Virus record (IMG/VR): IMGVR_UViG_2574180238_000003
Source of the DNA: a virus
Lineage: Duplodnaviria > Heunggongvirae > Uroviricota > Caudoviricetes
Strand: one strand, 5' to 3'
DNA length: 47,428 bases
A model generated the notes under the pieces. That model ran no database searches, was not told the origin of the DNA, and worked only from the letters and a program-made list of their open reading frames with translations. The translations under genes and the position numbers were made by a program. Below are positions 1 to 41,173 of the stretch, piece by piece; position 1 is the stretch's first letter, and every line of letters starts with the position of its first letter.

Positions 1-1119
1 TCAAATAACCAACTTAACCCATTCCTGACCTCGGGTATCGTTATAGCGATCGGTGGTTGCCTGGACTTTATGTCCTAGTAAGGTTTTTGTATCGATACCC
101 TGTGCACGGTACAGCCGTTCAGATAGAGAGCGTTGTTCATGAAATGTGGGCGGTGTTTTTCCTGCTGGTGGAATTATTCCAGCCAGATCCCGCGCTTTGG
201 CAAAGTAGTCGCTCAGGTTGTCTTTACTCATCGGCTTTGGTTGTTTCTGGTGCCGACTATGGATTAGATATGGACTTAATATTCTGTCTCGGCATCCATC
301 AATAACGTCTTTTAACGTTATCCCAATGGCATCACAGCGTAGTGTAAGCGGTAACGCCAGACGCATTCCGGTTTTTCCCTGGGTGATATGCAAGTGTTCG
401 TTCCACACATCTGAAAAACGCATGTGGCAAATGTCATCACGGCGCTGACCAGTGACAATCGCAAGAAGCATTGCGTTACGGATAAAGTGTTTTTCCGGCG
501 TTGCGTTGTAAATTTTTTGCCAGTCTTCCAGGGCGAGCCTGGCTCTGGTTACTTTAGGGATCGGTTTACGGGTAGCCTCCGGAGGATTCCATCCAGGAGG
601 AACTTCCCCTGCATGTTGTGCTTCTTTATAAATATCAACCCATAATCCGCGATTTACTCTCGCTGTGCTGACCATGTCTTTATCCAGCCATTCATCCAGT
701 ATTAATGCAAAGTCTCTTACTTCCAGGTCTTTCAATGGGTGATTTCCCAGGCGGAAAACCAGGTATGCAGCCATTCGCGCCTTTTCTTTGTGGGTTGTAG
801 CTGCAATATCTCCATTTTTCAGTCGTGAGTCCTGTATTTTCAGATATCGATCAACCCATGCTTTTAATCTGATACCCCGACGTTTTGTTGCTGATGGACT
901 TTCATCAATTTTGCGCATGAAATATTCTGCTTCTGCTGCAGCTATTCGTTGATTAGCCGTGGAAGCGATTTTTTCTGCCTTGTCTTTGTCTGTTCCGAGT
1001 CCGTGAAATTTTCCAGTCACTGGATTTTTATACTGGTAGTAAACCTTGCCAGTTCTGCGATCAAACTTTTCGTAAAGACATGCTATGTCAGTGCTGTTTT
1101 TTCGTGGCCTCGGTGACAT
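1..1119 (-). CDS. int: Phage integrase (tyrosine recombinase)
   Basis: 372-aa ORF ending at window position 1. C-terminal half shows the tyrosine-recombinase layout (TGQRRDD arginine box, HEQR, LLGH, terminal Y in TDRY). Lies at the prophage left end overlapping xis, as in lambda. Confidence 0.9.
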   Translation of the reverse strand: MSPRPRKNSTDIACLYEKFDRRTGKVYYQYKNPVTGKFHGLGTDKDKAEKIASTANQRIAAAEAEYFMRKIDESPSATKRRGIRLKAWVDRYLKIQDSRLKNGDIAATTHKEKARMAAYLVFRLGNHPLKDLEVRDFALILDEWLDKDMVSTARVNRGLWVDIYKEAQHAGEVPPGWNPPEATRKPIPKVTRARLALEDWQKIYNATPEKHFIRNAMLLAIVTGQRRDDICHMRFSDVWNEHLHITQGKTGMRLALPLTLRCDAIGITLKDVIDGCRDRILSPYLIHSRHQKQPKPMSKDNLSDYFAKARDLAGIIPPAGKTPPTFHEQRSLSERLYRAQGIDTKTLLGHKVQATTDRYNDTRGQEWVKLVI

Positions 1120-1366
1120 GAGTTAAAATCTCCTTCAGTGCGTCATCATCGTCAGTATGAATTTCCGGCGCAATTCCTGTTTCACCAGGACCCACAAATA
1201 CTGCTCGGCGATCTATCAGCCAACGCCCACGGATTTTTTGTGGCCTTGGAACGATGTATCCCATTTTTCCGTATTTCACCAGGGTAGTGTTTGTTATTGG
1301 GAGACTGAACCGTTTAGGTTTCCACTCGTCGAGCGTTATCAGGTACTGTTCGCTCATGGCCATCAC
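1088..1366 (-). CDS. xis: Excisionase (Xis-like DNA-binding protein)
   Basis: 92-aa ORF immediately upstream of and overlapping the int start; small basic protein in the canonical xis position. Exact start Met among MMAM is uncertain. Confidence 0.7.
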   Translation of the reverse strand: MMAMSEQYLITLDEWKPKRFSLPITNTTLVKYGKMGYIVPRPQKIRGRWLIDRRAVFVGPGETGIAPEIHTDDDDALKEILTHVTEATKKQH

Positions 1367-1418
1367 TCCGGAATGCGCCAGTTGCAGAATAGCAACTACA
1401 ACTGGCGACGGTTGAACA

Positions 1419-3890
1419 TTAAAAATCAGCCTGACTCGGGATCAGTTTTTGCCAGATGGCTGAAACGTATTTTGCCTGGTAACGCGTATCGTGCAGGGCG
1501 TTATGGTGTTCACCTTCGAATGGAATAGTCGTTCTTGCGTCGAAATCCATCACCAGTCCCAGAGCAACCATCGTTCTTACATCGCGATCATTGGTGTAAC
1601 GCCACGGGCAGGGGATCCCCTGCCGTTCATATGAACGGCGTAAAATCACGTTGTCGAAAGTTGCACCGTTACCCCAGACCTGAACAAAAAATTCACCGGA
1701 GTTTTCGTCGATAAATTCCCGGAATTGCAGCAGTGCATCATCCAACGGGATTTCATCGGTCAGAATGGCGGATTGTGCTTCGCGTGACTGTTTCAGCCAC
1801 CACTTAATGGTGTCCCGTTCGATGACCCCGCCTGCGGTTTCCAGATCGATAGTTTTGCTGAATTCTGGCCCCATCTCTCCGGTTGCCGGATCAAAAAACT
1901 TACCGGCTATAGCGTTTATTGGCGCATCAGGATTTTTTCCCATTGTTTCAAGGTCAATCATCAGATGGTGCCACAACCTGCTGGTGGATGTGATTTCACG
2001 ATGACCGTTCACCTTAATTAAGGGATTTGCTGTCTCGCCAGTTTTATTATCGCTGGCGTGATACTGATCGCTGTCAGTGTTCTCCTTGTGCGGATCTTCA
2101 GTGCCTTCCATTTCCTCCGGAGCATTTTCCTGAACTTCAATCAGGCTCTCTCCATCGAATGTTTCCTGGTAGGTTGCGTCGCCCATCACCGCACCACAGT
2201 CAGGACAGTTGCCGCCACCGGTCTGACCGCATGCGGTGCAAACTTTCTCCACTTCCTGTTGCACTGCTGGTTCTGGTTGTTGCTCTTCTGGCCCGTTTTG
2301 TTGCGTATCCGGGCTGTTTTGTTCCGCTTCTGGCTCATTTTGTTTCACGCCGGGCTGATTCTGGCCCTCAGCGTTGCGACTCTGGATCCCTTTCACCCAT
2401 TTCGGATCATTAGGGTCGCTAATCCCTTCAACAAATTCACCACGTGATGCAGCAAGCAATTTATCGGCGTCAGGCTGGCTGATATTGGCTGCCTGCATAA
2501 TTTTGTTTACTTCGTCAGCGGTAACTTTTACCGGCTCTGGTTGTACGGAATCTTCAGCGGTATCTACATTTTGCGGTAAGCCCGTATATGTGCCATTTTT
2601 TCGGGCAAAATATTCCTCTTTTGAGATTTCGGTAGCGCCGGCAGCCAGCGCCTTGTCCAGACCAGAAAGTTTGTTTGCCCTGCCGTATTTTTCCTCGCCC
2701 TTATCGGTAAAGACGAAATAAAATGGTCCTTCACGCTCTACAGATGGTTCAGCTTCCACCAGGATTTCATTTTTTTGAGTATCGGATTCTGCCGTCTCCA
2801 CTGGAGCAGTTTGTGCTGCTGACGGCTGGAGAGTATCAGCAGAGCTCTGGTCTGTTTCTTCATGCTCAAACACGCCCTTTGTTGTCAGGTATTCGCTGAT
2901 ATATTTGTTCAGTGCAACGGGATCTTTGTGAATGTCGATCGGACGTTCACGGACAAGGCCAAAAATAGTCTGACGGTCATAGCCAAGTGCTTCGGGCTGT
3001 TTGCGCATTGATGCTGAGATACGCTTCCAGTCTTCGCGATCCTTGTCGATAACCTCATTTGTCGCCCAGCGATGGATGGTACCGTCAATATTTCCCGCAT
3101 TCACATCACCGGGCCAGAGGGCGCAGGCCAGCTCATTGTCGAGTGTTTTCCATGTCTGTTTGTATTCTCGGCGAACGGCAACAGTGACATCCCCGGTTTT
3201 TTCAGCAGAGTTTTCAGTGTTCTGTTGGTTTACTCTGGAACGGGCGATATCAACGACAGATGTGTATTTCCCGGTTTCCTTGCGTTCACCTTCGCGACGT
3301 TTTTTCCAGATGCGCATCTCTGCCTGAATTTCGGGCCATTTAGCAGCAGGCTTGCATTTATGCTTAACCCACCCGATGGCATGCAGCTTAAGCTCCGGAT
3401 ACATGGCGTTAACTTCTGGCATTTTCATCAACGCTTCAACGATATGGCCGTCGAATGTTGCCATGTCTTCCTGCAACAATTCCTGTGCGCTAATCACCAT
3501 ATCAACAGTGATGTTTTCACATGTGTCGAACTTAACCATGACGGCGTTCTGTACTTCAGGGGCCAGCTTGTCAAAGGTGACGTTCATCGGATCGGATTCA
3601 GTCTCGACCGGGACAAAGGAAGCAGACGCCTCATCCCAGCGGTTTTCCTGCATATATTCGGTATCCCAGGAATCGAGGGTAGGGCGGGGTATGCCGGGTT
3701 TATCCTCACAGACAATAAATTTATAAGCGCAGTCCTGAGCTGCCGGGAATTGCTCCAGAAATTGCCAGTGAAATTTTGCGCGTGCGCGACGCTCATCACC
3801 GGCTTCAATGGCAGTGGCCACCGCAACAGCGCTATCTTCTTTTATGGCCTGTTCATCAGGAATAGCCGCGCAAATAAAGATTTTACTCAT
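1419..3890 (-). CDS. Exodeoxyribonuclease VIII (RecE)-family protein with C-terminal DnaQ-like DEDDh 3'-5' exonuclease domain
   Basis: 823-aa ORF. Central Cys-rich segment (CTACGQTGGGNCPDCGAVMGDATYQETF) and the flanking KLLAASRGEFVEGISDPNDPKWVKGIQ segment resemble the RecE linker region as recalled. C-terminal ~200 aa carry DEDDh motifs read directly: MIDLETMG (DxE), WGNGATFDN, HNALHDTRY (Hx4D). Confidence 0.75.
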   Translation of the reverse strand: MSKIFICAAIPDEQAIKEDSAVAVATAIEAGDERRARAKFHWQFLEQFPAAQDCAYKFIVCEDKPGIPRPTLDSWDTEYMQENRWDEASASFVPVETESDPMNVTFDKLAPEVQNAVMVKFDTCENITVDMVISAQELLQEDMATFDGHIVEALMKMPEVNAMYPELKLHAIGWVKHKCKPAAKWPEIQAEMRIWKKRREGERKETGKYTSVVDIARSRVNQQNTENSAEKTGDVTVAVRREYKQTWKTLDNELACALWPGDVNAGNIDGTIHRWATNEVIDKDREDWKRISASMRKQPEALGYDRQTIFGLVRERPIDIHKDPVALNKYISEYLTTKGVFEHEETDQSSADTLQPSAAQTAPVETAESDTQKNEILVEAEPSVEREGPFYFVFTDKGEEKYGRANKLSGLDKALAAGATEISKEEYFARKNGTYTGLPQNVDTAEDSVQPEPVKVTADEVNKIMQAANISQPDADKLLAASRGEFVEGISDPNDPKWVKGIQSRNAEGQNQPGVKQNEPEAEQNSPDTQQNGPEEQQPEPAVQQEVEKVCTACGQTGGGNCPDCGAVMGDATYQETFDGESLIEVQENAPEEMEGTEDPHKENTDSDQYHASDNKTGETANPLIKVNGHREITSTSRLWHHLMIDLETMGKNPDAPINAIAGKFFDPATGEMGPEFSKTIDLETAGGVIERDTIKWWLKQSREAQSAILTDEIPLDDALLQFREFIDENSGEFFVQVWGNGATFDNVILRRSYERQGIPCPWRYTNDRDVRTMVALGLVMDFDARTTIPFEGEHHNALHDTRYQAKYVSAIWQKLIPSQADF

Positions 3891-10949: not shown

Positions 10950-11159
10950 AAACGGTTTGCGGGGAAAGAAGAGTTAAGTAGAATTGCTGCGGGTGCTTGA
11001 GGCTGTTTGCCTCGGGCATGCCGCCGTAAGGCAGACAGAGAAAAGCCCCAGTTAACATTACGCGTCTTGCAGGACGCTTAACATTAATCTGAGGCCCAAT
11101 CTATGCTTCACAAACGTAGGTTAGCCTCTTACGTGCCGAAAGGCAAGGAGAAGCAGGCT

Positions 11160-11315
11160 ATGAAGCAGCAAAAGGCGATGTTAATCGCCCTGATCGTCAT
11201 CTGTTTAACCGTCATAGTGACGGCACTGGTAACGAGGAAAGACCTCTGCGAGGTACGAATCCGAACCGGCCAGACGGAGGTTGCTGTCTTCGTAGACTAC
11301 GAATCTGAGAAGTAA
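11160..11315 (+). CDS. hokD: Hok/Gef-family type I toxin (HokD/RelF-like)
   Basis: MKQQKAMLIALIVICLTVIVTALVTRKDLCEVRIRTGQTEVAVF... matches the Hok family signature and recalled RelF/HokD; GC hairpin ggcgagggagaaatccctcgcc (11325-11346) just downstream, typical of hok mRNA 3' ends. Confidence 0.85.
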   Translation: MKQQKAMLIALIVICLTVIVTALVTRKDLCEVRIRTGQTEVAVFVDYESEK

Positions 11316-15406: not shown

Positions 15407-15482
15407 GGCCCTTTAGCTCAGTGGTGAGAGCGAGCGACTCATAATCGCCAGGTCGCTGGTTCAAATCCAGCAAGGGCCACCA
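15407..15482 (+). tRNA. tRNA with CAU anticodon (Ile2/lysidine-type, ileZ-like; Met not excluded)
   Basis: 76-nt cloverleaf: acceptor GGCCCTT/AAGGGCC, D-arm GCTC..GAGC, anticodon loop CTCATAA, T-loop GGTTCAAATCC, 3' ACCA encoded; close to recalled E. coli ileX. Confidence 0.85.
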
Positions 15483-15491
15483 TATCACATA

Positions 15492-15568
15492 CCGCCATTA
15501 GCTCATCGGGATAGAGCGCCAGCCTTCGAAGCTGGCTGCGCGGGGTTCGAGTCCTCGATGGCGGTCCA
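15492..15568 (+). tRNA. tRNA-Arg (anticodon UCG)
   Basis: 77-nt cloverleaf: acceptor CCGCCAT/ATGGCGG, anticodon stem CCAGC/GCTGG with loop CTTCGAA, T-arm CGGGG-TTCGAGT-CCTCG, 3' TCCA. Confidence 0.8.
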
Positions 15569-15846
15569 TTATCTGCATTATGCGTTGTTGGTTCTGATGA
15601 GTGAATCATTGTCTTTTGAGCAACAGGCTATCATATAAGATAGCCTCAGACTTCCTTGTTTATTCTCGCCGGATGCTTCGTAGATATTTGCAGGCATCTG
15701 TATGCAGGGGTATTATTGCGGCATATATCATCCGGAAAAATAAAAACTACATGCTGATCCGGAGATGATAGTTACAAGTCCTCCCGGATCCCGCATATTT
15801 ACTATATTTTATAGATAATTGTTCTTGTTAATATGGAGATGGATAA

Positions 15847-16275
15847 ATGTATTGCCGTGCTGTACCGGTTCTTGTTTTGATATTAGCCAGTCTGACAACT
15901 GGCTGCACAAAAGATGTATCGACAAATAATCATGATGCTTCTCTGTATCACTCAGATAAATTAATAAAGTCGCAAAATTTGAGCTCATCGGAACGTACCC
16001 CTGATGCCAGTGAAGAAATCCGGCAGTATGCCATTCAGGTCAGGAAAGCCATAGAAGAACAGTTAAAGGATGCGAGTAAGTATTCAGGAAAAGAGTGTTC
16101 ACTGAGAATGTATATGGCCCCGAATGGTCTTCTGCTACAGGTTAAAAGAGAAAGCGGTGATCCCGATTTATGTCGTGAAGCGATGAATGCAGTAAAGAAT
16201 GCTGATATACCATCACCACCGTCTTCAGGAGTATATAAAGCATTTAGAAATGGCGTGCTGGATTTTAAACTCTGA
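15847..16275 (+). CDS. Lipoprotein with TolA C-terminal domain (domain III)-like region
   Basis: Signal peptide plus lipobox LTTGC; C-terminal ~80 aa (IQVRKAIEEQLKDASKYSGKECSLRMYMAPNGLLLQVKRESGDPDLCREAMNAVKNADIPSPPSSGVYKAFRNGVLDFKL) align to recalled E. coli TolA domain III including the conserved Cys pair; AT-rich upstream flank. Confidence 0.7.
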   Translation: MYCRAVPVLVLILASLTTGCTKDVSTNNHDASLYHSDKLIKSQNLSSSERTPDASEEIRQYAIQVRKAIEEQLKDASKYSGKECSLRMYMAPNGLLLQVKRESGDPDLCREAMNAVKNADIPSPPSSGVYKAFRNGVLDFKL

Positions 16276-16334
16276 CAGGGGGAGAAGATTTTCTCCTGTC
16301 CTGATGATTTTGGGGCGCTGGAAAGATATTGTGC

Positions 16335-16590
16335 TGTGAAGTGTTAAATCCCTCACAATTCAGTAAGTTGACAGTTGCCTGTCAGACTGAGCATTTGTTA
16401 AAAAAATTTCGCATGGTGAATCCCCCTGTGCGGAGGGGCGACTGGTGAACGGTATGATCTCTTTGATGATCGTAAGCGAGAATACGCGGGTTTGGTGTCA
16501 CCGGGCTGAACTCACCGGGAGGCACCCGGCACCATGCTCATGGTGATACAGAAATGCGGCTTCAGCCCCTCTCCGGAGGGGCTTTCTTAT
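16335..16590 (+). repeat. Structured repeat unit 1 of 4 (candidate sRNA)
   Basis: Conserved blocks ttaaatccctcacaattcag, gcatggtgaatccccctgtgcggaggggc, caccgggaggcacccggcaccatgc, and terminator hairpin gcccctctccggaggggc with T-run. Confidence 0.6.
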
Positions 16591-16746
16591 GGACAAAAAA
16601 AGCCCGCGCTGGGAGACGCGGGCGGCAAGGAATAAACAATAAAACGTGAAGTAATACTTCAACTGGCGAATAATACCCGACAGTAATCACTCTGCGCAAT
16701 AGCGTGGCCTTTTTCGAATTGCGGGCTGTAGTCTCCCTTCTGCCGG

Positions 16747-16900
16747 GTGTCCTGGTTGCAGATTTCTTCATGGGGTAGGGTTCGGCAGTTAAAGCAGCGA
16801 TGGCGCTGGGGCGTCGTGCAACTGGCGTTGAGCTGGATACCGGGCGTTTTGAACAGACTGCGCAGGAAATCAGGGATGTATTTAGCGGGAGCGGTTTGCA
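16747..16900 (+). pseudogene. 3' fragment of a DNA methyltransferase gene (paralogous to 15216-15366), in-frame stop
   Basis: Nucleotide similarity to the 3' end of the intact methylase gene; translates as VLVADFFMG*GSAVKAAMALGRRATGVELDTGRFEQ... Confidence 0.7.
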
Positions 16901-16970
16901 GAAGTAATCTCCCAAAATGCCATTTTTGGAATATACTGGTATTAAGTCTTTTTGCTCAGGTTAATTCAAA

Positions 16971-17696
16971 ATGGATGTTGCCTGCTCTGTGGTCCTGATT
17001 CGCTATCCGATAGATATTTTTCTTGAAAAAGAAAAAGTTTCACTCGATGCCGGAAGTGTTATGCTTGTTGCCAGAAATATAAGAGGGCTTTTCTGTGCTT
17101 ATGCCGACAGAGTGAAAATGGCAGATATAAGTAACAGCGTCGTCAATCAGTATCTGGAAAGGGAGTGTGAACTGACGGAGTATACACCGACAAAAATGCC
17201 TCTTTATTTGATGTCTGATATTTACAATACGGAACTGGCGGAGGCTTTAATAACCCAGCATAGTGAATCCAGTGATACTTTGAAGGATTTCTCTGTTATA
17301 ACCGCATTTTCATGTATCTCCTTATTTGCAACAGACAGACGTCTGCCATTATTTTTGTCCGGTGCTGTAAATAATATCAGCTGTAAAGTAAGGGCTATAA
17401 TTCAGACCGACATATCGGCAGGCTGGATGCTTGGTGTGATTGCATTACAATTGCATATGAGCGAAAGCTTGTTGAAGCGAAAACTTAAGGATGAAGGTTA
17501 TAGCTTTAGTCGGTTGTTGCTGGAGGAGCGAATGCGTGTTGCTGTTAATCTTGTATGTTTCCAGCGAGAGTGTGGACAAGCGATAGCGGAAAAATGTGGT
17601 TACTCAAGTAAGTCCTACTTCATTTCTGTATTTCACCAGTATTATGGTGCACCACCTGAGAGCTATGCATATTTGCAGAAAGCAGACGTTATCTGA
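16971..17696 (+). CDS. AraC-family transcriptional regulator
   Basis: 241-aa ORF; C-terminal AraC-type dual HTH (GWMLGVIALQLHMSESLLKRKLKDEGYSFSRLLLEERMRVAVNLV...KCGYSSKSYFISVFHQYYGAPPESY); AT-rich gene in the accessory block. Confidence 0.8.
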   Translation: MDVACSVVLIRYPIDIFLEKEKVSLDAGSVMLVARNIRGLFCAYADRVKMADISNSVVNQYLERECELTEYTPTKMPLYLMSDIYNTELAEALITQHSESSDTLKDFSVITAFSCISLFATDRRLPLFLSGAVNNISCKVRAIIQTDISAGWMLGVIALQLHMSESLLKRKLKDEGYSFSRLLLEERMRVAVNLVCFQRECGQAIAEKCGYSSKSYFISVFHQYYGAPPESYAYLQKADVI

Positions 17697-17785
17697 TGTT
17701 TTTTCATCAGGCATATATTGATTGACTGTATTAGATATAGTCTGAATGTGTTCAGCATAAAAAGTTATAATCATTTGGTGTTTGC

Positions 17786-18064
17786 GTGAATATTGATGAG
17801 AAAATCAGATGTAGCCAACTGTTACAGCGTATTGAAGCCGTCAATGTGGAACGAACAAAGGTCTTCAGTCGTCTGACAGTTTTATTTTGTACCCCTGATC
17901 GACGTTCAGGTCAGGAGATGGTTCTTCTGGATGTAGATGCACTTCGGAACGTCTGTGAGGAGTTCACCGCGGCTAATTCGGAGTTACTGAGTCTTGTTCA
18001 GGAGTACAACAGAATTGCAGGTAGTAACGGTTTTGATGAAATCAAAATTATATCCCGTGGATAA
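17786..18064 (+). CDS. Hypothetical protein
   Basis: 92-aa ORF (GTG start, or ATG 17796) downstream of the AraC gene. Confidence 0.35.
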   Translation: MNIDEKIRCSQLLQRIEAVNVERTKVFSRLTVLFCTPDRRSGQEMVLLDVDALRNVCEEFTAANSELLSLVQEYNRIAGSNGFDEIKIISRG

Positions 18065-18304
18065 AACATATCCTGTATATTTATGTTGTTACATACAGGC
18101 GCTTTTAGTATCTGCCGCACGGCAGTTGTACTTCAGAATAAGATGCTTTTGTGACTGGTGGTGTTGTATCTGGGGTTAGCCAGTAGGCAGGTTCAGAGAG
18201 TCCGGTGGTAATTATGTGTATGCAGTGGTTGTTGCTGTACCGTGGGCAAGTTCTGGAACTGGCTTCGTCCATTGTAGATGATTGTTAGCTGGATATCAGT
18301 TACC

Positions 18305-18548
18305 TCATGGAAATGTTAAATGACTCACAATTCGGTTGATGGGCTATTGTCTGATCGATGGAAGTCTTGTAAAAACGAGCCAGCATAGTGAATCCCCCTG
18401 TGCGGAGGGGCGTCTGACATGGTCTCCATAGCGATGGTCACAATACGCAGATTCAGTAGTCAGGCTGAATCTACCGGGAGGCACCCGGCACTATGCTGCT
18501 TATGGTGTATACATAGCGATCGGCCCCTCTCCGGAGGGGCTTTTTTTG
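18305..18548 (+). repeat. Structured repeat unit 2 of 4
   Basis: Same block order as unit 1; long-range helix gcatagtg (18383-18390) / cactatgc (18489-18496) carries a compensatory base-pair change relative to unit 1; terminator gcccctctccggaggggc plus T7. Confidence 0.6.
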
Positions 18549-18564
18549 TGCGGGAAAAGGCTGT

Positions 18565-18806
18565 GTTGTTAAGTGTTAAATTCCTCACAGTTCAGATGGT
18601 TGATGCTTGCCTGTCTGAGGGGGCGTTGTTAAAAAAGTTCTGCATGGTGAATCCCCCTGAGCGGAGGGGCATATCAGCGCAGGTGTTTCTACTCTATCCT
18701 TTCTGTGCGGGTTCAGGTGCTGATACTGAACTCATCGGGAGGCACCCGGCATCATGCATATGGTTAACAGACACGTAGCGAAGCCCCTCTCCGGAGGGGC
18801 TTTTTT
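18565..18806 (+). repeat. Structured repeat unit 3 of 4
   Basis: Same blocks; helix gcatggtg / catcatgc (G-U wobble); terminator gcccctctccggaggggc plus T6. Confidence 0.6.
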
Positions 18807-18824
18807 ATGCAGGGAAAAGGCTGT

Positions 18825-19062
18825 GTTGTGAAATGTTAAATTCCTCACAATTCATGAGGTTGATGATTGTCTGATTGATGAGGAGTTTGTTAAAAAAAAC
18901 GGGCATGGTGAATCCCCCTGTGCGGAGGGGTGATATCGTATCATTTCCTGTGTGGCCGACTGATATCACGGACATTTGTTCACCGGGAGGCACCCGGCAC
19001 CATGCAGTATACAGAGATTAGGCATACATCCAGGCTCCTCATCGCAGGAGCCTTTTTACATG
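18825..19062 (+). repeat. Structured repeat unit 4 of 4
   Basis: Same blocks; helix gcatggtg / caccatgc; different terminator sequence (ggctcctcatcgcaggagcc plus T5) in the same position. Confidence 0.6.
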
Positions 19063-19291
19063 TAAAAAAAAAAACGCTCCTGGGAAGAGCGGTTGGCAAG
19101 GAAGCAAGGAATAAATAACAAAACGTGAAGTAATTTATTCAGCACCCTAATAATACCTTAGAGTAATCACATTGCGCAACTGTAAGGGCGTATTTCTTTT
19201 TTGCGGGCTGTTTTTCTGTGTGACTTTTGTGTTTCCGGAGGTCAGCCCGTGCCTTCTCTGACTCAGAACATTATCCCGGCCGGGAGGATTC

Positions 19292-21256
19292 ATGGCATTT
19301 AAACACTACGATGTGGTCAGGGCGGCATCGCCGTCAGACCTTGCTGAACGACTGACACAAAAACTGAAGGAGGGCTGGCAGCCATTTGGCAGTCCGGTGG
19401 CCATCACGCCTTATACCCTGATGCAGGCCATTGCGGCGGAAGGTGATGTCACCACACCAGTGGCGGTGACCGGTAATGAGGGTAAGGCGGTGGCTGTCAG
19501 TGCCACCAGCGACCCGGAGTATTACTTTGTTGTGGTTCTGGCAGGGCAGTCAAATGGCATGTCGTATGGTGAAGGTCTTCCGCTGCCGGAGACATATGAC
19601 CGTCCGGACCCGCGCATTAAGCAGCTGGCGCGCCGCAGTACGGTGACACCGGGCGGTGCAGCATGCAAATATAACGACATCATTCCGGCGGACCATTGTC
19701 TGCATGATGTGCAGGACATGAGCCGCCTTAACCATCCGAAAGCGGACCTGTCAAAGGGGCAGTACGGTACCGTGGGGCAGGGGCTGCATATCGCCAAAAA
19801 ACTGCTGCCGTTTATACCGGCGAATGCGGGTATTCTGCTGGTTCCGTGCTGTCGTGGGGGTTCAGCGTTCACCACCGGAGCTGATGGCACATACAGTGAC
19901 GCTGGCGGTGCCTCGGAGAATTCAGCGCGCTGGGGTGTGGACAAGCCGCTGTATAAGGACCTTATCGGTCGAACAAAAGCAGCACTGAAGAAGAACCCGA
20001 AAAATGTGCTGTTTGCCGTGGTGTGGATGCAGGGGGAATTTGATTTTGACGGCACGCCCGGAAATCACGCAGCACAGTTTGGTGCGCTGGTTGATAAATT
20101 CCGTGCAGACCTGGCGGATATGGCAGGCCAGTGCGTCAGTGGCTCTGCTGGCGGTGTTCCCTGGATATGCGGGGACACGACGTATTTCTGGAAGCAGAAG
20201 AACGAATCCACGTACCAGACGGTGTACGGCAGCTATAAAAACAAAACGGAAAAGAATATCCATTTCGTACCGTTCATGACGGATGAGAACGGGGTGAATG
20301 TGCCGACGAACAAACCGGAAGAAGACCCGGACATTCCGGGTATCGGGTATTACGGTTCGAAATGGCGTGACAGCTCAGCCCCCTGGACGTCACAGGACAG
20401 GGCGAGCCATTTCAGCACCTGGGCACGCCGGGGGATTATTTCCGACCGTCTGGCAACGGCGATTCTGGTGCACGCCGGGAGAACCGCTGAATTCATTACC
20501 GGAAAACAGCCTGATATGGTGAAGCCCACCGTACCTTCCGGTGAAGGTCCGGAGAGAGAGGCGGAAGCCCCGGTCAGTAACCGAACCCTGATGAGTCTGC
20601 TGGCATCCGGCGAAGACCTGGCATCACAGGGCTGGCGCTATTATCACAAACCGGCGGGCGGGGACAGTGTTAACAAAAACATTGCTGAAGCGGTGGTCAG
20701 TGATGCGGGGGCTACGGGAGGTAAGGCTCTGCAACTGAACAAACCGGAAAACCACATCTGGTTTCTGGAGCATGATGCAGCCGGACAGGGTGCGGAGTTA
20801 CTGAAGAAGGGCGGACGTGTGAGCGTACGGTTTAAGTTGCCGGGTTCACTGGTGCCGAATCAGTTTGCCCTGGGCATTTACTGGCAGTTGTCGTCCCTGC
20901 CGGAGGGGGTGACGCTGTCAGGAGAAGGTAACGATATGCTGATGTCTTTCTTCCTGCAGACGGATACGACGAACCTGAACGCGATGCATCACAGGAAGCC
21001 GAATGCGAAGCTGGATACATTCGGGGTCTTTGATAACGGATGGCACACGCTGGCTTTTGAGTTTGCCGGAAACAACAGCATTCAGGTGACACCAGTACTG
21101 GATGAGAAACGGGGAGCGGCGTTCACACTGGTGAAGTCACCGGCATCGGGGGCGGCGGACAAACTGCAACTGACCGATATATCAAAATCGGCGACGTATA
21201 CGCTGCTGATTGACAGCATTGCGGTGGAAGTGAACAGCACAGACACTGCGGCATGA
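19292..21256 (+). CDS. NanS-p-type sialate O-acetylesterase (SGNH/SASA hydrolase)
   Basis: 654-aa ORF; GQSN catalytic motif (VVVLAGQSNGMSYGEG); location between Q/tRNAs and the lysis cassette as in Stx-type lambdoid phages. Confidence 0.75.
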   Translation: MAFKHYDVVRAASPSDLAERLTQKLKEGWQPFGSPVAITPYTLMQAIAAEGDVTTPVAVTGNEGKAVAVSATSDPEYYFVVVLAGQSNGMSYGEGLPLPETYDRPDPRIKQLARRSTVTPGGAACKYNDIIPADHCLHDVQDMSRLNHPKADLSKGQYGTVGQGLHIAKKLLPFIPANAGILLVPCCRGGSAFTTGADGTYSDAGGASENSARWGVDKPLYKDLIGRTKAALKKNPKNVLFAVVWMQGEFDFDGTPGNHAAQFGALVDKFRADLADMAGQCVSGSAGGVPWICGDTTYFWKQKNESTYQTVYGSYKNKTEKNIHFVPFMTDENGVNVPTNKPEEDPDIPGIGYYGSKWRDSSAPWTSQDRASHFSTWARRGIISDRLATAILVHAGRTAEFITGKQPDMVKPTVPSGEGPEREAEAPVSNRTLMSLLASGEDLASQGWRYYHKPAGGDSVNKNIAEAVVSDAGATGGKALQLNKPENHIWFLEHDAAGQGAELLKKGGRVSVRFKLPGSLVPNQFALGIYWQLSSLPEGVTLSGEGNDMLMSFFLQTDTTNLNAMHHRKPNAKLDTFGVFDNGWHTLAFEFAGNNSIQVTPVLDEKRGAAFTLVKSPASGAADKLQLTDISKSATYTLLIDSIAVEVNSTDTAA

Positions 21257-40749: not shown

Positions 40750-41173
40750 AAATAAAAAAATCCCGCAGAGTTAGCGGAGCTGCGGGAAGAGATACGAAGA
40801 TTAACTGTAAGGAGTTATTATTATGTCACAGCAAAAAAAACGGTAACGCAGAGAAATTATAAGCGCCACTGGGATTTTGTGAAAATGTGAAGAATTTCAG
40901 AAATTTTCTGTTGCGGAGCTGAACTAAAAAACGCTCCCGCAATACACCTGGATATTAACGGGAGGAACGAATAGTCACCTTAAGGAGTTGCGATTAATTG
41001 CTTTTATTGACCGCAGGTAATCTACCCATCCGGCAAGGTTTCCTCCACGGGAATTTGCCGGAAATGTGAAGAATTTCAGAAATTTTATTCCGTCATGACA
41101 CAGGCCCCCTCCGGGGTGCCTGTCGTTTTCTGGCATAAACAGATTCAGACATCAGACAGGAGAGGGGGACAGA

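Follow-up and report, generated by a model that had tools for sequence, protein, structure and literature searches.

Two predicted leftward small-RNA genes beside STnc100 units in a lambdoid prophage of Escherichia coli

The locus and its trailer segments

The DNA analysed here (IMG/VR virus record IMGVR_UViG_2574180238_000003; 47,428 nucleotides (nt), hereafter the window) corresponds to the late region of a prophage of the lambdoid type, from a Shiga-toxigenic-type Escherichia coli. Across the 3 kb compared (window 16300-19300), it is 99.8% identical to strain 05-3629. Our subject is a pair of short 'trailer' segments, each found directly after a gene for the small RNA (sRNA) STnc100. The gene order opens with the Q antiterminator, a DNA methyltransferase, tRNA-Met(CAT), tRNA-Arg and a 142-amino acid (aa) TolA-like moron. 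It continues with STnc100 unit 1, trailer 1, a methyltransferase remnant, an AraC-type helix-turn-helix (HTH) gene and a small open reading frame (ORF), and ends with three tandem STnc100 units (18354-19063, plus strand), trailer 2 and the sialate esterase gene nanS-p (19292-21256). The evidence below supports a prediction, made from sequence, that both trailers are leftward genes of a small Hfq-binding regulatory RNA, of a family detected earlier in prophages of enterohaemorrhagic (EHEC) and enteropathogenic (EPEC) E. coli.

The trailers are two related minus-strand units of 105 and 116 base pairs (bp), at 16595-16699 (copy 1) and 19064-19179 (copy 2). They are 74% identical from the U-tract to the TTGCGC -35 element and 83% identical across the promoter; in the 60 nt beyond the -35, identity falls to 54%, approximately background. 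On the plus strand, copy 1 opens with a run of seven A residues (16595-16601) followed by a hairpin (16602-16623), and copy 2 with a run of 11 (19064-19074) followed by a hairpin (19075-19091). An earlier model reading of the letters (the original prediction) had placed a conserved segment with minus-strand intrinsic terminators after STnc100 units 1 and 4. Both segments lie where it put them, the motifs that it quoted (ggcaaggaataaa..aaaacgtgaagtaat and agtaatcac..tgcgcaa) occur in both copies, and a terminator scan calls both minus-strand terminators (eight pairs followed by T7, and seven pairs followed by T10+). The conserved length is ∼105-116 bp, not the ∼150 bp that it gave. It had also singled out copy 2 as standing back-to-back with an STnc100 plus-strand terminator; this is so for copy 2 but also for copy 1, as in each case ∼10 nt separate the minus-strand terminator from that of the STnc100 unit before it. 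The scan finds 12 terminator-like sites in the region, compared with 3.6 ± 2.0 in shuffled sequences.

R1, a covariance model built from members of the sRNA family, has significant matches in the 47-kb window only at copies 1 and 2 (Table 1). Its weak matches at 40754-40901 on the minus strand (E 0.09-0.9) are neither of them a copy of the sRNA; the downstream one (40754-40832) contains a minus-strand GC hairpin and T-run terminator (cccgcag...ctgcggg ttttttt).

Promoter, RNA body and terminator

Both copies share one leftward layout: TTGCGC, exactly 18 nt, TATTAT, ∼6 nt to a purine, and an RNA of 70 nt (copy 1) or 80 nt (copy 2). This conserved start signal, P1, lies inside the trailer, ∼70-80 nt from the terminator. 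The predicted RNA consists of a short 5′ hairpin, then ACGUUUU(A/G)UU(G/A)UUUAUUCCUUGCC, an unpaired GU-rich stretch that runs into the seed at its end, and finally the terminator hairpin with its U-tail. Copy 1 RNA folds at -20.9 kcal/mol (z -4.65 against shuffles) and copy 2 RNA at -15.1 kcal/mol (z -3.4), the middle stretch staying unpaired in both. We take P1 as a real start because the primary 5′ end of the prophage sRNA AsxR (Tree et al. 2014) falls 6 nt after TAAAAT, which is itself 18 nt from a TTGCGC; from P1 and this likeness, the 5′ end of copy 1 RNA would lie at ∼16664. The plus-strand hairpin at 16692-16707 (see below) supplies, on the minus strand, an A-tract upstream of the -35 that could serve as an UP-like element.

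Table 1. Coordinates of the predicted sRNA genes, their parts and the convergent STnc100 units in the window (MFE, minimum free energy; RBS, ribosome-binding site)
Feature	Position	Strand	Basis
sRNA copy 1, short form, ∼70 nt, AGUUGAAGUAUUACUUCACGUUUUAUUGUUUAUUCCUUGCCGCCCGCGUCUCCCAGCGCGGGCUUUUUUU	16595..16664	-	R1 97.1 bits over 16595-16663, E 1e-21
sRNA copy 2, short form, ∼80 nt, GCUGAAUAAAUUACUUCACGUUUUGUUAUUUAUUCCUUGCUUCCUUGCCAACCGCUCUUCCCAGGAGCGUUUUUUUUUUU	19064..19143	-	R1 69.6 bits over 19066-19143, E 7e-15
Copy 1 terminator stem-loop	16602..16623; U7 tract 16601..16595	-	Terminator scan: 8 pairs, 7 of them G-C, then T7
Copy 2 terminator stem-loop	19075..19091; U11 tract 19074..19064	-	Terminator scan: 7 pairs
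Copy 1 seed UUCCUUGCC, directly 5′ of terminator	16624..16632	-	Unpaired in MFE structure
Copy 2 duplicated seed UUCCUUGC / UUCCUUGCCA, 8-nt tandem duplication	19094..19111	-	Alignments
Copy 1 promoter P1	16670..16699; -35 TTGCGC 16699..16694, 18-nt spacer, -10 TATTAT 16675..16670	-	Hexamer conservation
Copy 2 promoter P1	19150..19179; -35 TTGCGC 19179..19174, 18-nt spacer, -10 TATTAT 19155..19150	-	Hexamers and spacing as in copy 1 and family
Candidate distal promoter P2, ATGCCA-N17-GATAAT, over nanS-p RBS and start codon	19270..19298	-	Promoter scan, 9/12 matches
STnc100 unit 1, convergent partner of copy 1	16382..16594	+	Rfam RF02076, 172 bits
STnc100 unit 4, convergent partner of copy 2	18874..19063	+	Rfam RF02076, 141 bits
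STnc100 unit 1 terminator	16564-16583	+	Terminator scan
STnc100 unit 4 terminator	19032-19053	+	Terminator scan

The promoter scan calls a second candidate site, P2, at the start of nanS-p, both in the window and in Sakai Sp4, where it would give a ∼200-nt form, as it would for copy 2; copy 2 may be made in this longer form as well. Copy 1 has no equivalent of P2. The original prediction had started the leftward RNA upstream of nanS-p for copy 2 and in the methylase remnant for copy 1. Only for copy 2 is a longer form, started just upstream of nanS-p, plausible, and no promoter-like site was found in the remnant. Promoter scans of the window and of Sakai Sp4 also found no promoter for the ∼271-nt species reported for a homologue (see next section).

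At 16692-16707 and, in Sakai Sp4, at 2534-2549 of locus L006, the leftward -35 is overlapped by a terminator-like hairpin on the plus strand, with CCTTTTTCG. As a plus-strand terminator, we rejected it: across variants the CGCGC of its left arm gives way to CATAC or CTTAC uncompensated, while TTGCGC is invariant. That the plus-strand stem is not maintained favours the promoter reading of the -35. We likewise rejected a bidirectional intrinsic terminator, as the hairpins are followed on the plus strand by GGCAAGG or GTTGGCAAGG with no T-run, and STnc100 has a separate terminator hairpin. Small-protein coding was also set aside: the minus-strand ORFs at 16562-16915 and 19147-19293 are not common to both copies.

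A second IMG/VR record of the same contig (IMGVR_UViG_2606217173_000002, locus L070) differs from the window at three bases (14411, 14678 and 16675). The last of these is the first base of the copy 1 -10, which is TATTAT in the window, as in the family consensus, and GATTAT in that record.

Homologues in Sakai and EPEC prophages

Tree et al. (2014; PMC4104026) reported that the lambdoid prophages of E. coli O157 Sakai carry 'convergent sRNA pairs' 3′ of a moron. In their example, from Sp5, the STnc100-like EcOnc27 faces AsxR, and Sp3, 4, 9, 10, 11, 15 and 17 are arranged similarly. Table S2 of that study lists minus-strand peaks in Sp4 from Hfq cross-linking and analysis of cDNA (CRAC), EcOnc08 (1179938-1180010, 73 nt) and EcOnc21 (1180016-1180101); it names EcOnc42 as a homologue and records a northern band of ∼271 nt. 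On the Sp4 sequence, the EcOnc08 peak covers exactly the interval from the terminator to the predicted P1 start, and EcOnc21 lies just upstream; EcOnc42 is the copy 3′ of stx1 in Sp15. A 2021 review lists the targets of EcOnc42 as unknown, the function of EcOnc08/21/42 is listed as unknown in PMC7873438, and in the literature searched we found that EcOnc08/21/42 had neither been named nor characterised since.

Pearl Mizrahi et al. (2021; PMC8550237) recovered E2348C_1409.E2348C_1408.IGR sRNA from prophage PP6 of EPEC E2348/69 (minus strand, 1444797-1444978) by RIL-seq (sequencing of RNA interactions captured through ligation), and remarked on its EcOnc homology. The 3′ end of this RNA is at 1444795-7 on the minus strand, and its RNA-seq boundaries give a length of 182 nt. 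Copy 1 is ∼95% identical to the Sakai EcOnc08 sequence and to the EPEC sRNA (blastn 93-95%), and R1 scores 103 bits on the Sakai and EPEC homologues.

Both window copies belong to this family by sequence and structure (R1 scores in Table 1), and both carry its terminator and an intact, unpaired CCUUGCC seed. Both also occupy the family position, on the minus strand between an STnc100-type terminator and nanS-p in the late-region moron slot, although copy 1 is followed by the methylase remnant instead of nanS-p. The convergent sRNA that had been proposed from the letters is borne out in that homologues near-identical to copy 1 give minus-strand Hfq-bound RNAs with 3′ ends at this hairpin.

Elsewhere in the EPEC genome (NC_011601 1060613-1060672, minus strand), the RIL-seq table lists an RNA labelled E2348C_1013, ∼180 nt from PasD1 and convergent with it. 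Its partners include the entC 5′ untranslated region (5′UTR) and the nlpD intergenic region. It looks like another cassette of the convergent-pair architecture.

Seed and targets

In the EPEC RIL-seq data (PMC8550237), every chimera has the sRNA in second place, joined at its 3′ end in the usual manner of sRNAs. It is found with the cfa 5′UTR (767 chimeras), the dppA 5′UTR (197), pcm (118), perA (30), tir (29), espC (26), E2348C_3965 (16) and emrA (15), and the reported target motif, GGCA(A/G)GG, is the complement of CCUUGCC.

The seed UUCCUUGCC is identical to nt 3-11 of CpxQ, an envelope-stress sRNA of the core genome whose 5′ end reads UUUUCCUUGCCAUAG... and which represses cfa according to the literature. 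Bianco et al. (2019) validated the pairing of CCUUGCC with cfa -135..-129 by a compensatory pair, CpxQ C11G and cfa G-135C. Because the EPEC cfa leader has CGGCAAGG at -136..-129 by our count, its site is the one validated for CpxQ. The seed, the site and the rank of cfa as the top partner of the homologue are all consistent with CpxQ-type pairing between CCUUGCC and its exact complement at cfa -135..-129. According to the same RIL-seq table, six of the eight EPEC partners are also partners of CpxQ (E2348C_3965, cfa 5′UTR, emrA, espC, tir and perA), the first five, not perA, with overlapping chimera windows. We found no statement of a CpxQ link to this sRNA in the literature searched. Homology to CpxQ, or a genomic origin like that of CpxQ, was rejected, as only the 9-10 nt seed is in common, there is no Rfam match, and the prophage RNA has its own predicted promoter.

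A second contact may involve the GU-rich stretch. The dppA leader contains AAACAACAAA, to which the EPEC version of the stretch, UUUGUUGUUU, is complementary, and dppA may be reached through it by GcvB-like targeting.

Conservation, distribution and the copy 2 allele

A pattern scan of IMG/VR returned at least 120 loci, which reduce to 46 unique variants of promoter plus gene among the matches listed. Within these 46 variants, the P1 hexamers and their spacing are invariant, except in the IMG/VR copy of this contig, and the 3′ half of the P1 spacer is variable. The body between CACG and TTGC was fixed by the search pattern, so its invariance in this set is no evidence of conservation.

The terminator stem exists in at least three versions: GCCCGCG/CGCGGGC, GCCCGCAU/AUGCGGGC and CCGCUCU/GGAGCGG. 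In a model-based alignment of 104 matches (22 distinct sequences), 96.6% of the terminator cells are paired and three stem pairs show compensatory changes, counts that come from close relatives in an alignment fitted to the model. The covariation score exceeds all 500 shuffles (0/500 reach it) and all slid registers.

Copy 1 and its relatives are common. Sequences of this type occur in ∼1,100 of 5,426 complete E. coli genomes (about a fifth) at 90-100% identity, with nothing annotated under them. The copy 2 type is rarer, with ∼80 of the same 5,426 genomes at ≥89% identity over the full 241-nt query. Searches of GTDB species-representative genomes gave no evidence of the family: an exact 24-mer had no match, and a loosened 18-base pattern had ∼100 chance matches in unrelated AT-rich genomes, of which the five tested (Gammaproteobacteria) were noise with R1. 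No Rfam family matches either trailer at gathering scores or at E<=10. The OmrA-B, Spot42 and suhB models give 14-20 bits, which we rejected as chance matches to the terminator only. Identity with PasA/PasC, suspected as PasA lies near an esterase gene, was rejected too; the published PasA core is absent from the window and the sequence differs.

Copy 2 differs from copy 1 at its 5′ end, and its terminator stem is entirely replaced yet still pairs. Its seed duplication is derived, since a copy-2-type relative without the duplication exists (locus L051, 12443-12511). The second repeat, UUCCUUGCCA, has a 10-mer in common with CpxQ. Compared with the closest genome (L001), the window has a T in place of a G, which shortens the copy 2 stem by one G-C pair, and the U-tract is longer.

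Neighbouring features

The prophage has four STnc100 genes (16382-16594 and 18354-19063, all on the plus strand), three in head-to-tail tandem. Each has its own promoter-like lead and its own terminator, and the leftward sRNA stands only after the first and the last of the four. Between the trailers (∼16745-18064) lie a C-terminal methyltransferase remnant (a pseudogene in RefSeq), the AraC-type HTH gene (16971-17696) and a 92-aa ORF. This interval looks like a second moron module recombined in, which would account for the trailer duplication. Upstream, at 15407-16275, the tRNA-Met(CAT) is labelled tRNA-Ile in a near-identical RefSeq genome, and the 142-aa ORF (TolA in RefSeq) follows tRNA-Met(CAT) and tRNA-Arg(TCG), in the position that the Shiga toxin (stx) genes take in Stx phages. 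At 10991-11165 (plus strand), in the early/late junction region of the prophage, Rfam finds the sok antitoxin RNA (RF01794, 115.8 bits), implying a putative hok/sok-type toxin-antitoxin locus.

Proposed function

We propose that the trailers encode a leftward, Hfq-dependent, base-pairing sRNA of the EcOnc08/21/42-EPEC family with CpxQ-like action on cfa, copy 2 being a diverged allele, and we put the probability of this whole reading at about 0.8. A sigma-70 promoter within the trailer (TTGCGC-N18-TATTAT) would start an RNA of 70-80 nt. That RNA would end at the GC hairpin and U-run abutting the STnc100 terminator, where the 3′ ends of the homologues lie, and the terminator with its U-tail would serve as the usual Hfq handle. 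The seed UUCCUUGCC would then pair with sites of the GGCAAGG type in mRNAs of the host and of virulence genes, the partners in EPEC being the cfa and dppA 5′UTRs, pcm, emrA, tir, espC and perA. Because CpxQ has this seed at its 5′ end and its validated site in cfa is the one concerned here, we infer that the prophage RNA would lower cfa mRNA as CpxQ does, independently of the Cpx response. In copy 2, the diverged allele, the terminator is swapped and the seed is duplicated.

A more specific conjecture, which we regard as an even bet, is that the prophage sRNA mimics the CpxQ seed under its own promoter and so imposes the CpxQ programme without Cpx activation. The tandem seed of copy 2 would strengthen or broaden this effect, and the GU-rich stretch may add dppA. 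If true, the CpxQ programme would here include cfa repression at -135..-129 and targeting of emrA and of transcripts from the enterocyte effacement locus (LEE).

About one in five complete E. coli genomes has the sRNA; Stx1 phages also carry it, directly 3′ of the toxin genes. It has had no name, Rfam model or annotation, and the covariance model now allows it to be annotated. The CpxQ seed identity supplies a testable idea of function, that lambdoid prophages may rewire host control of membrane-lipid and virulence genes, and is the one lead worth following.

Several observations, together with the relatedness of the aligned sequences mentioned above, weigh against the proposed sRNA. Expression and Hfq binding have been demonstrated only for the Sakai and EPEC homologues. 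The P1 -35 matches the consensus at only three of six bases, which is why the promoter scan leaves P1 uncalled. The published sizes (∼271 nt by northern in Sakai, 182 nt by RNA-seq in EPEC) exceed the 70 nt expected from P1, and the short Hfq-bound form could be a processing product of a longer RNA. As for targets, tir, espC and perA are abundant and promiscuous RIL-seq partners that inflate the overlap with CpxQ, and dppA and pcm are not among the CpxQ partners in the part of the table examined. Both window copies have one G-to-A change in the GU-rich stretch that would pair with dppA. Finally, duplex energies of the seed region with the RIL-seq windows of cfa, dppA and pcm are no better than those of shuffled seeds, so that the case for pairing depends on the exact motif and RIL-seq and not on energetics.

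Alternative explanations

The size discrepancy leads to the first alternative, that a long (∼200-270 nt) leftward transcript from the nanS-p start region acts mainly in cis, as an antisense RNA to the late (PR′-driven) transcript or to the nanS-p leader, or through promoter occlusion at the nanS-p RBS, and that the 70-nt piece is only its stable 3′ end. Besides both published lengths, the EcOnc21 CRAC peak upstream of P1, the presence of P2 over the nanS-p start in the window and in Sp4, and the conservation of the P1-to-P2 interval even between the AsxR and EcOnc08 loci all speak for it. However, copy 1 has lost the upstream part, with the methylase remnant in its stead, yet retains P1, body and terminator intact; the RIL-seq partners are trans targets with a common seed motif; a P2 transcript would not overlap the nanS-p RBS itself; and the overlapping nanS-p start codon confounds any reading of how well P2 is conserved. 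We consider this account unlikely as the main function, although cis action of a long transcript and trans action of the sRNA can coexist.

Sharing its slot, orientation and -35 with AsxR, the trailer RNA might instead be an anti-sRNA or sponge like AsxR and AgvB, its main job being to titrate or destabilise a core sRNA, and Tree et al. (PMC4104026) proposed anti-sRNAs as the products of this slot. Between R1 and the Rfam models of AsxR and AgvB there is no cross-similarity, though, and the EPEC RIL-seq partners listed are all mRNAs, 5′UTRs or an intergenic region, with no sRNA among them. The seed, moreover, resembles the seed of an sRNA (CpxQ) and not a target site, and we think a sponge quite improbable.

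That the trailers are recombination scars without a functional RNA, their hairpins only insulating STnc100 from stray leftward transcription or serving a plus-strand role as nanS-p leader or terminator, would suit their place at a recombination-prone module boundary, the gene remnant after copy 1 and the plus-strand hairpin over the -35, but it is very hard to credit when that hairpin is not maintained while TTGCGC is invariant, no plus-strand T-run follows the A-run and hairpin to make a bidirectional terminator, homologues give abundant Hfq-bound minus-strand RNA, and two unrelated stem sequences both keep hairpin and U-run.

Comparison with known systems

STnc100 (RF02076) and PasD share with this sRNA the prophage moron region and Hfq association, and form a convergent pair with it. 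They lie on the opposite strand, are ∼200 nt long and are unrelated in sequence and structure; they are neighbours only.

CpxQ has the same seed (UUCCUUGCC in copy 1, UUCCUUGCCA in copy 2), the same cfa site and six of the eight EPEC partners in common. It is a core sRNA processed from the cpxP 3′UTR by RNase E, whereas the prophage sRNA has a promoter of its own. The CpxQ seed is at the processed 5′ end, while the prophage seed is internal, beside the terminator, and the prophage sRNA lacks the second seed of CpxQ and its partner skp.

The likeness to AsxR and AgvB is one of position and signals. In Sakai Sp5, which served as a positive control, Rfam puts AsxR at the same position, directly after STnc100 (88 bits). 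AsxR and AgvB occupy this minus-strand slot, upstream of nanS-p and immediately behind the STnc100 terminator, and run leftward from a TTGCGC -35; AsxR has this -35 at the same 18-nt spacing. Each of these RNAs has a GC hairpin whose loop is C-rich, with a U-run after it. The AsxR and EcOnc08 loci have the flank between the nanS-p start and the -35, TTGCGCAG, in common, and differ over the remaining interval as far as the STnc100 terminator. There is no relation between the RNA bodies (51-60 nt in AsxR and AgvB, 70-80 nt here), and AsxR and AgvB pair with a core sRNA whereas the EPEC homologue of this sRNA has mRNA partners. Membership of the AsxR (RF02703) or AgvB (RF02702) family was rejected: neither model, which would match through a conserved 3′ region of ∼42 nt, gives a match to the trailers at gathering score or E<=10, and R1 misses AsxR. 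The trailer sRNA is a different cassette in the AsxR slot and not a member of the AsxR family.

EcOnc08/21/42 have the same strand, terminator and promoter hexamers. They too converge with an STnc100-type sRNA, and have a moron or stx1 on one side and nanS-p on the other. The window prophage differs in having two copies, of which copy 2 is only ∼74% identical to copy 1, with another terminator stem and the 8-nt seed duplication, and in that its upstream moron is a TolA-like ORF, not stx1 or tRNAs alone. The EPEC PP6 sRNA, which supplies the only partner list, is near-identical to copy 1 in body, seed and terminator; its upstream STnc100 is truncated by an insertion sequence (IS) element, and its GU-rich stretch reads UUUGUUGUUU, compared with UUUAUUGUUU in copy 1 and UUUGUUAUUU in copy 2. 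The sRNA of the trailers is of a known kind, already detected though unnamed and uncharacterised, and the window holds two alleles of it and no new class.

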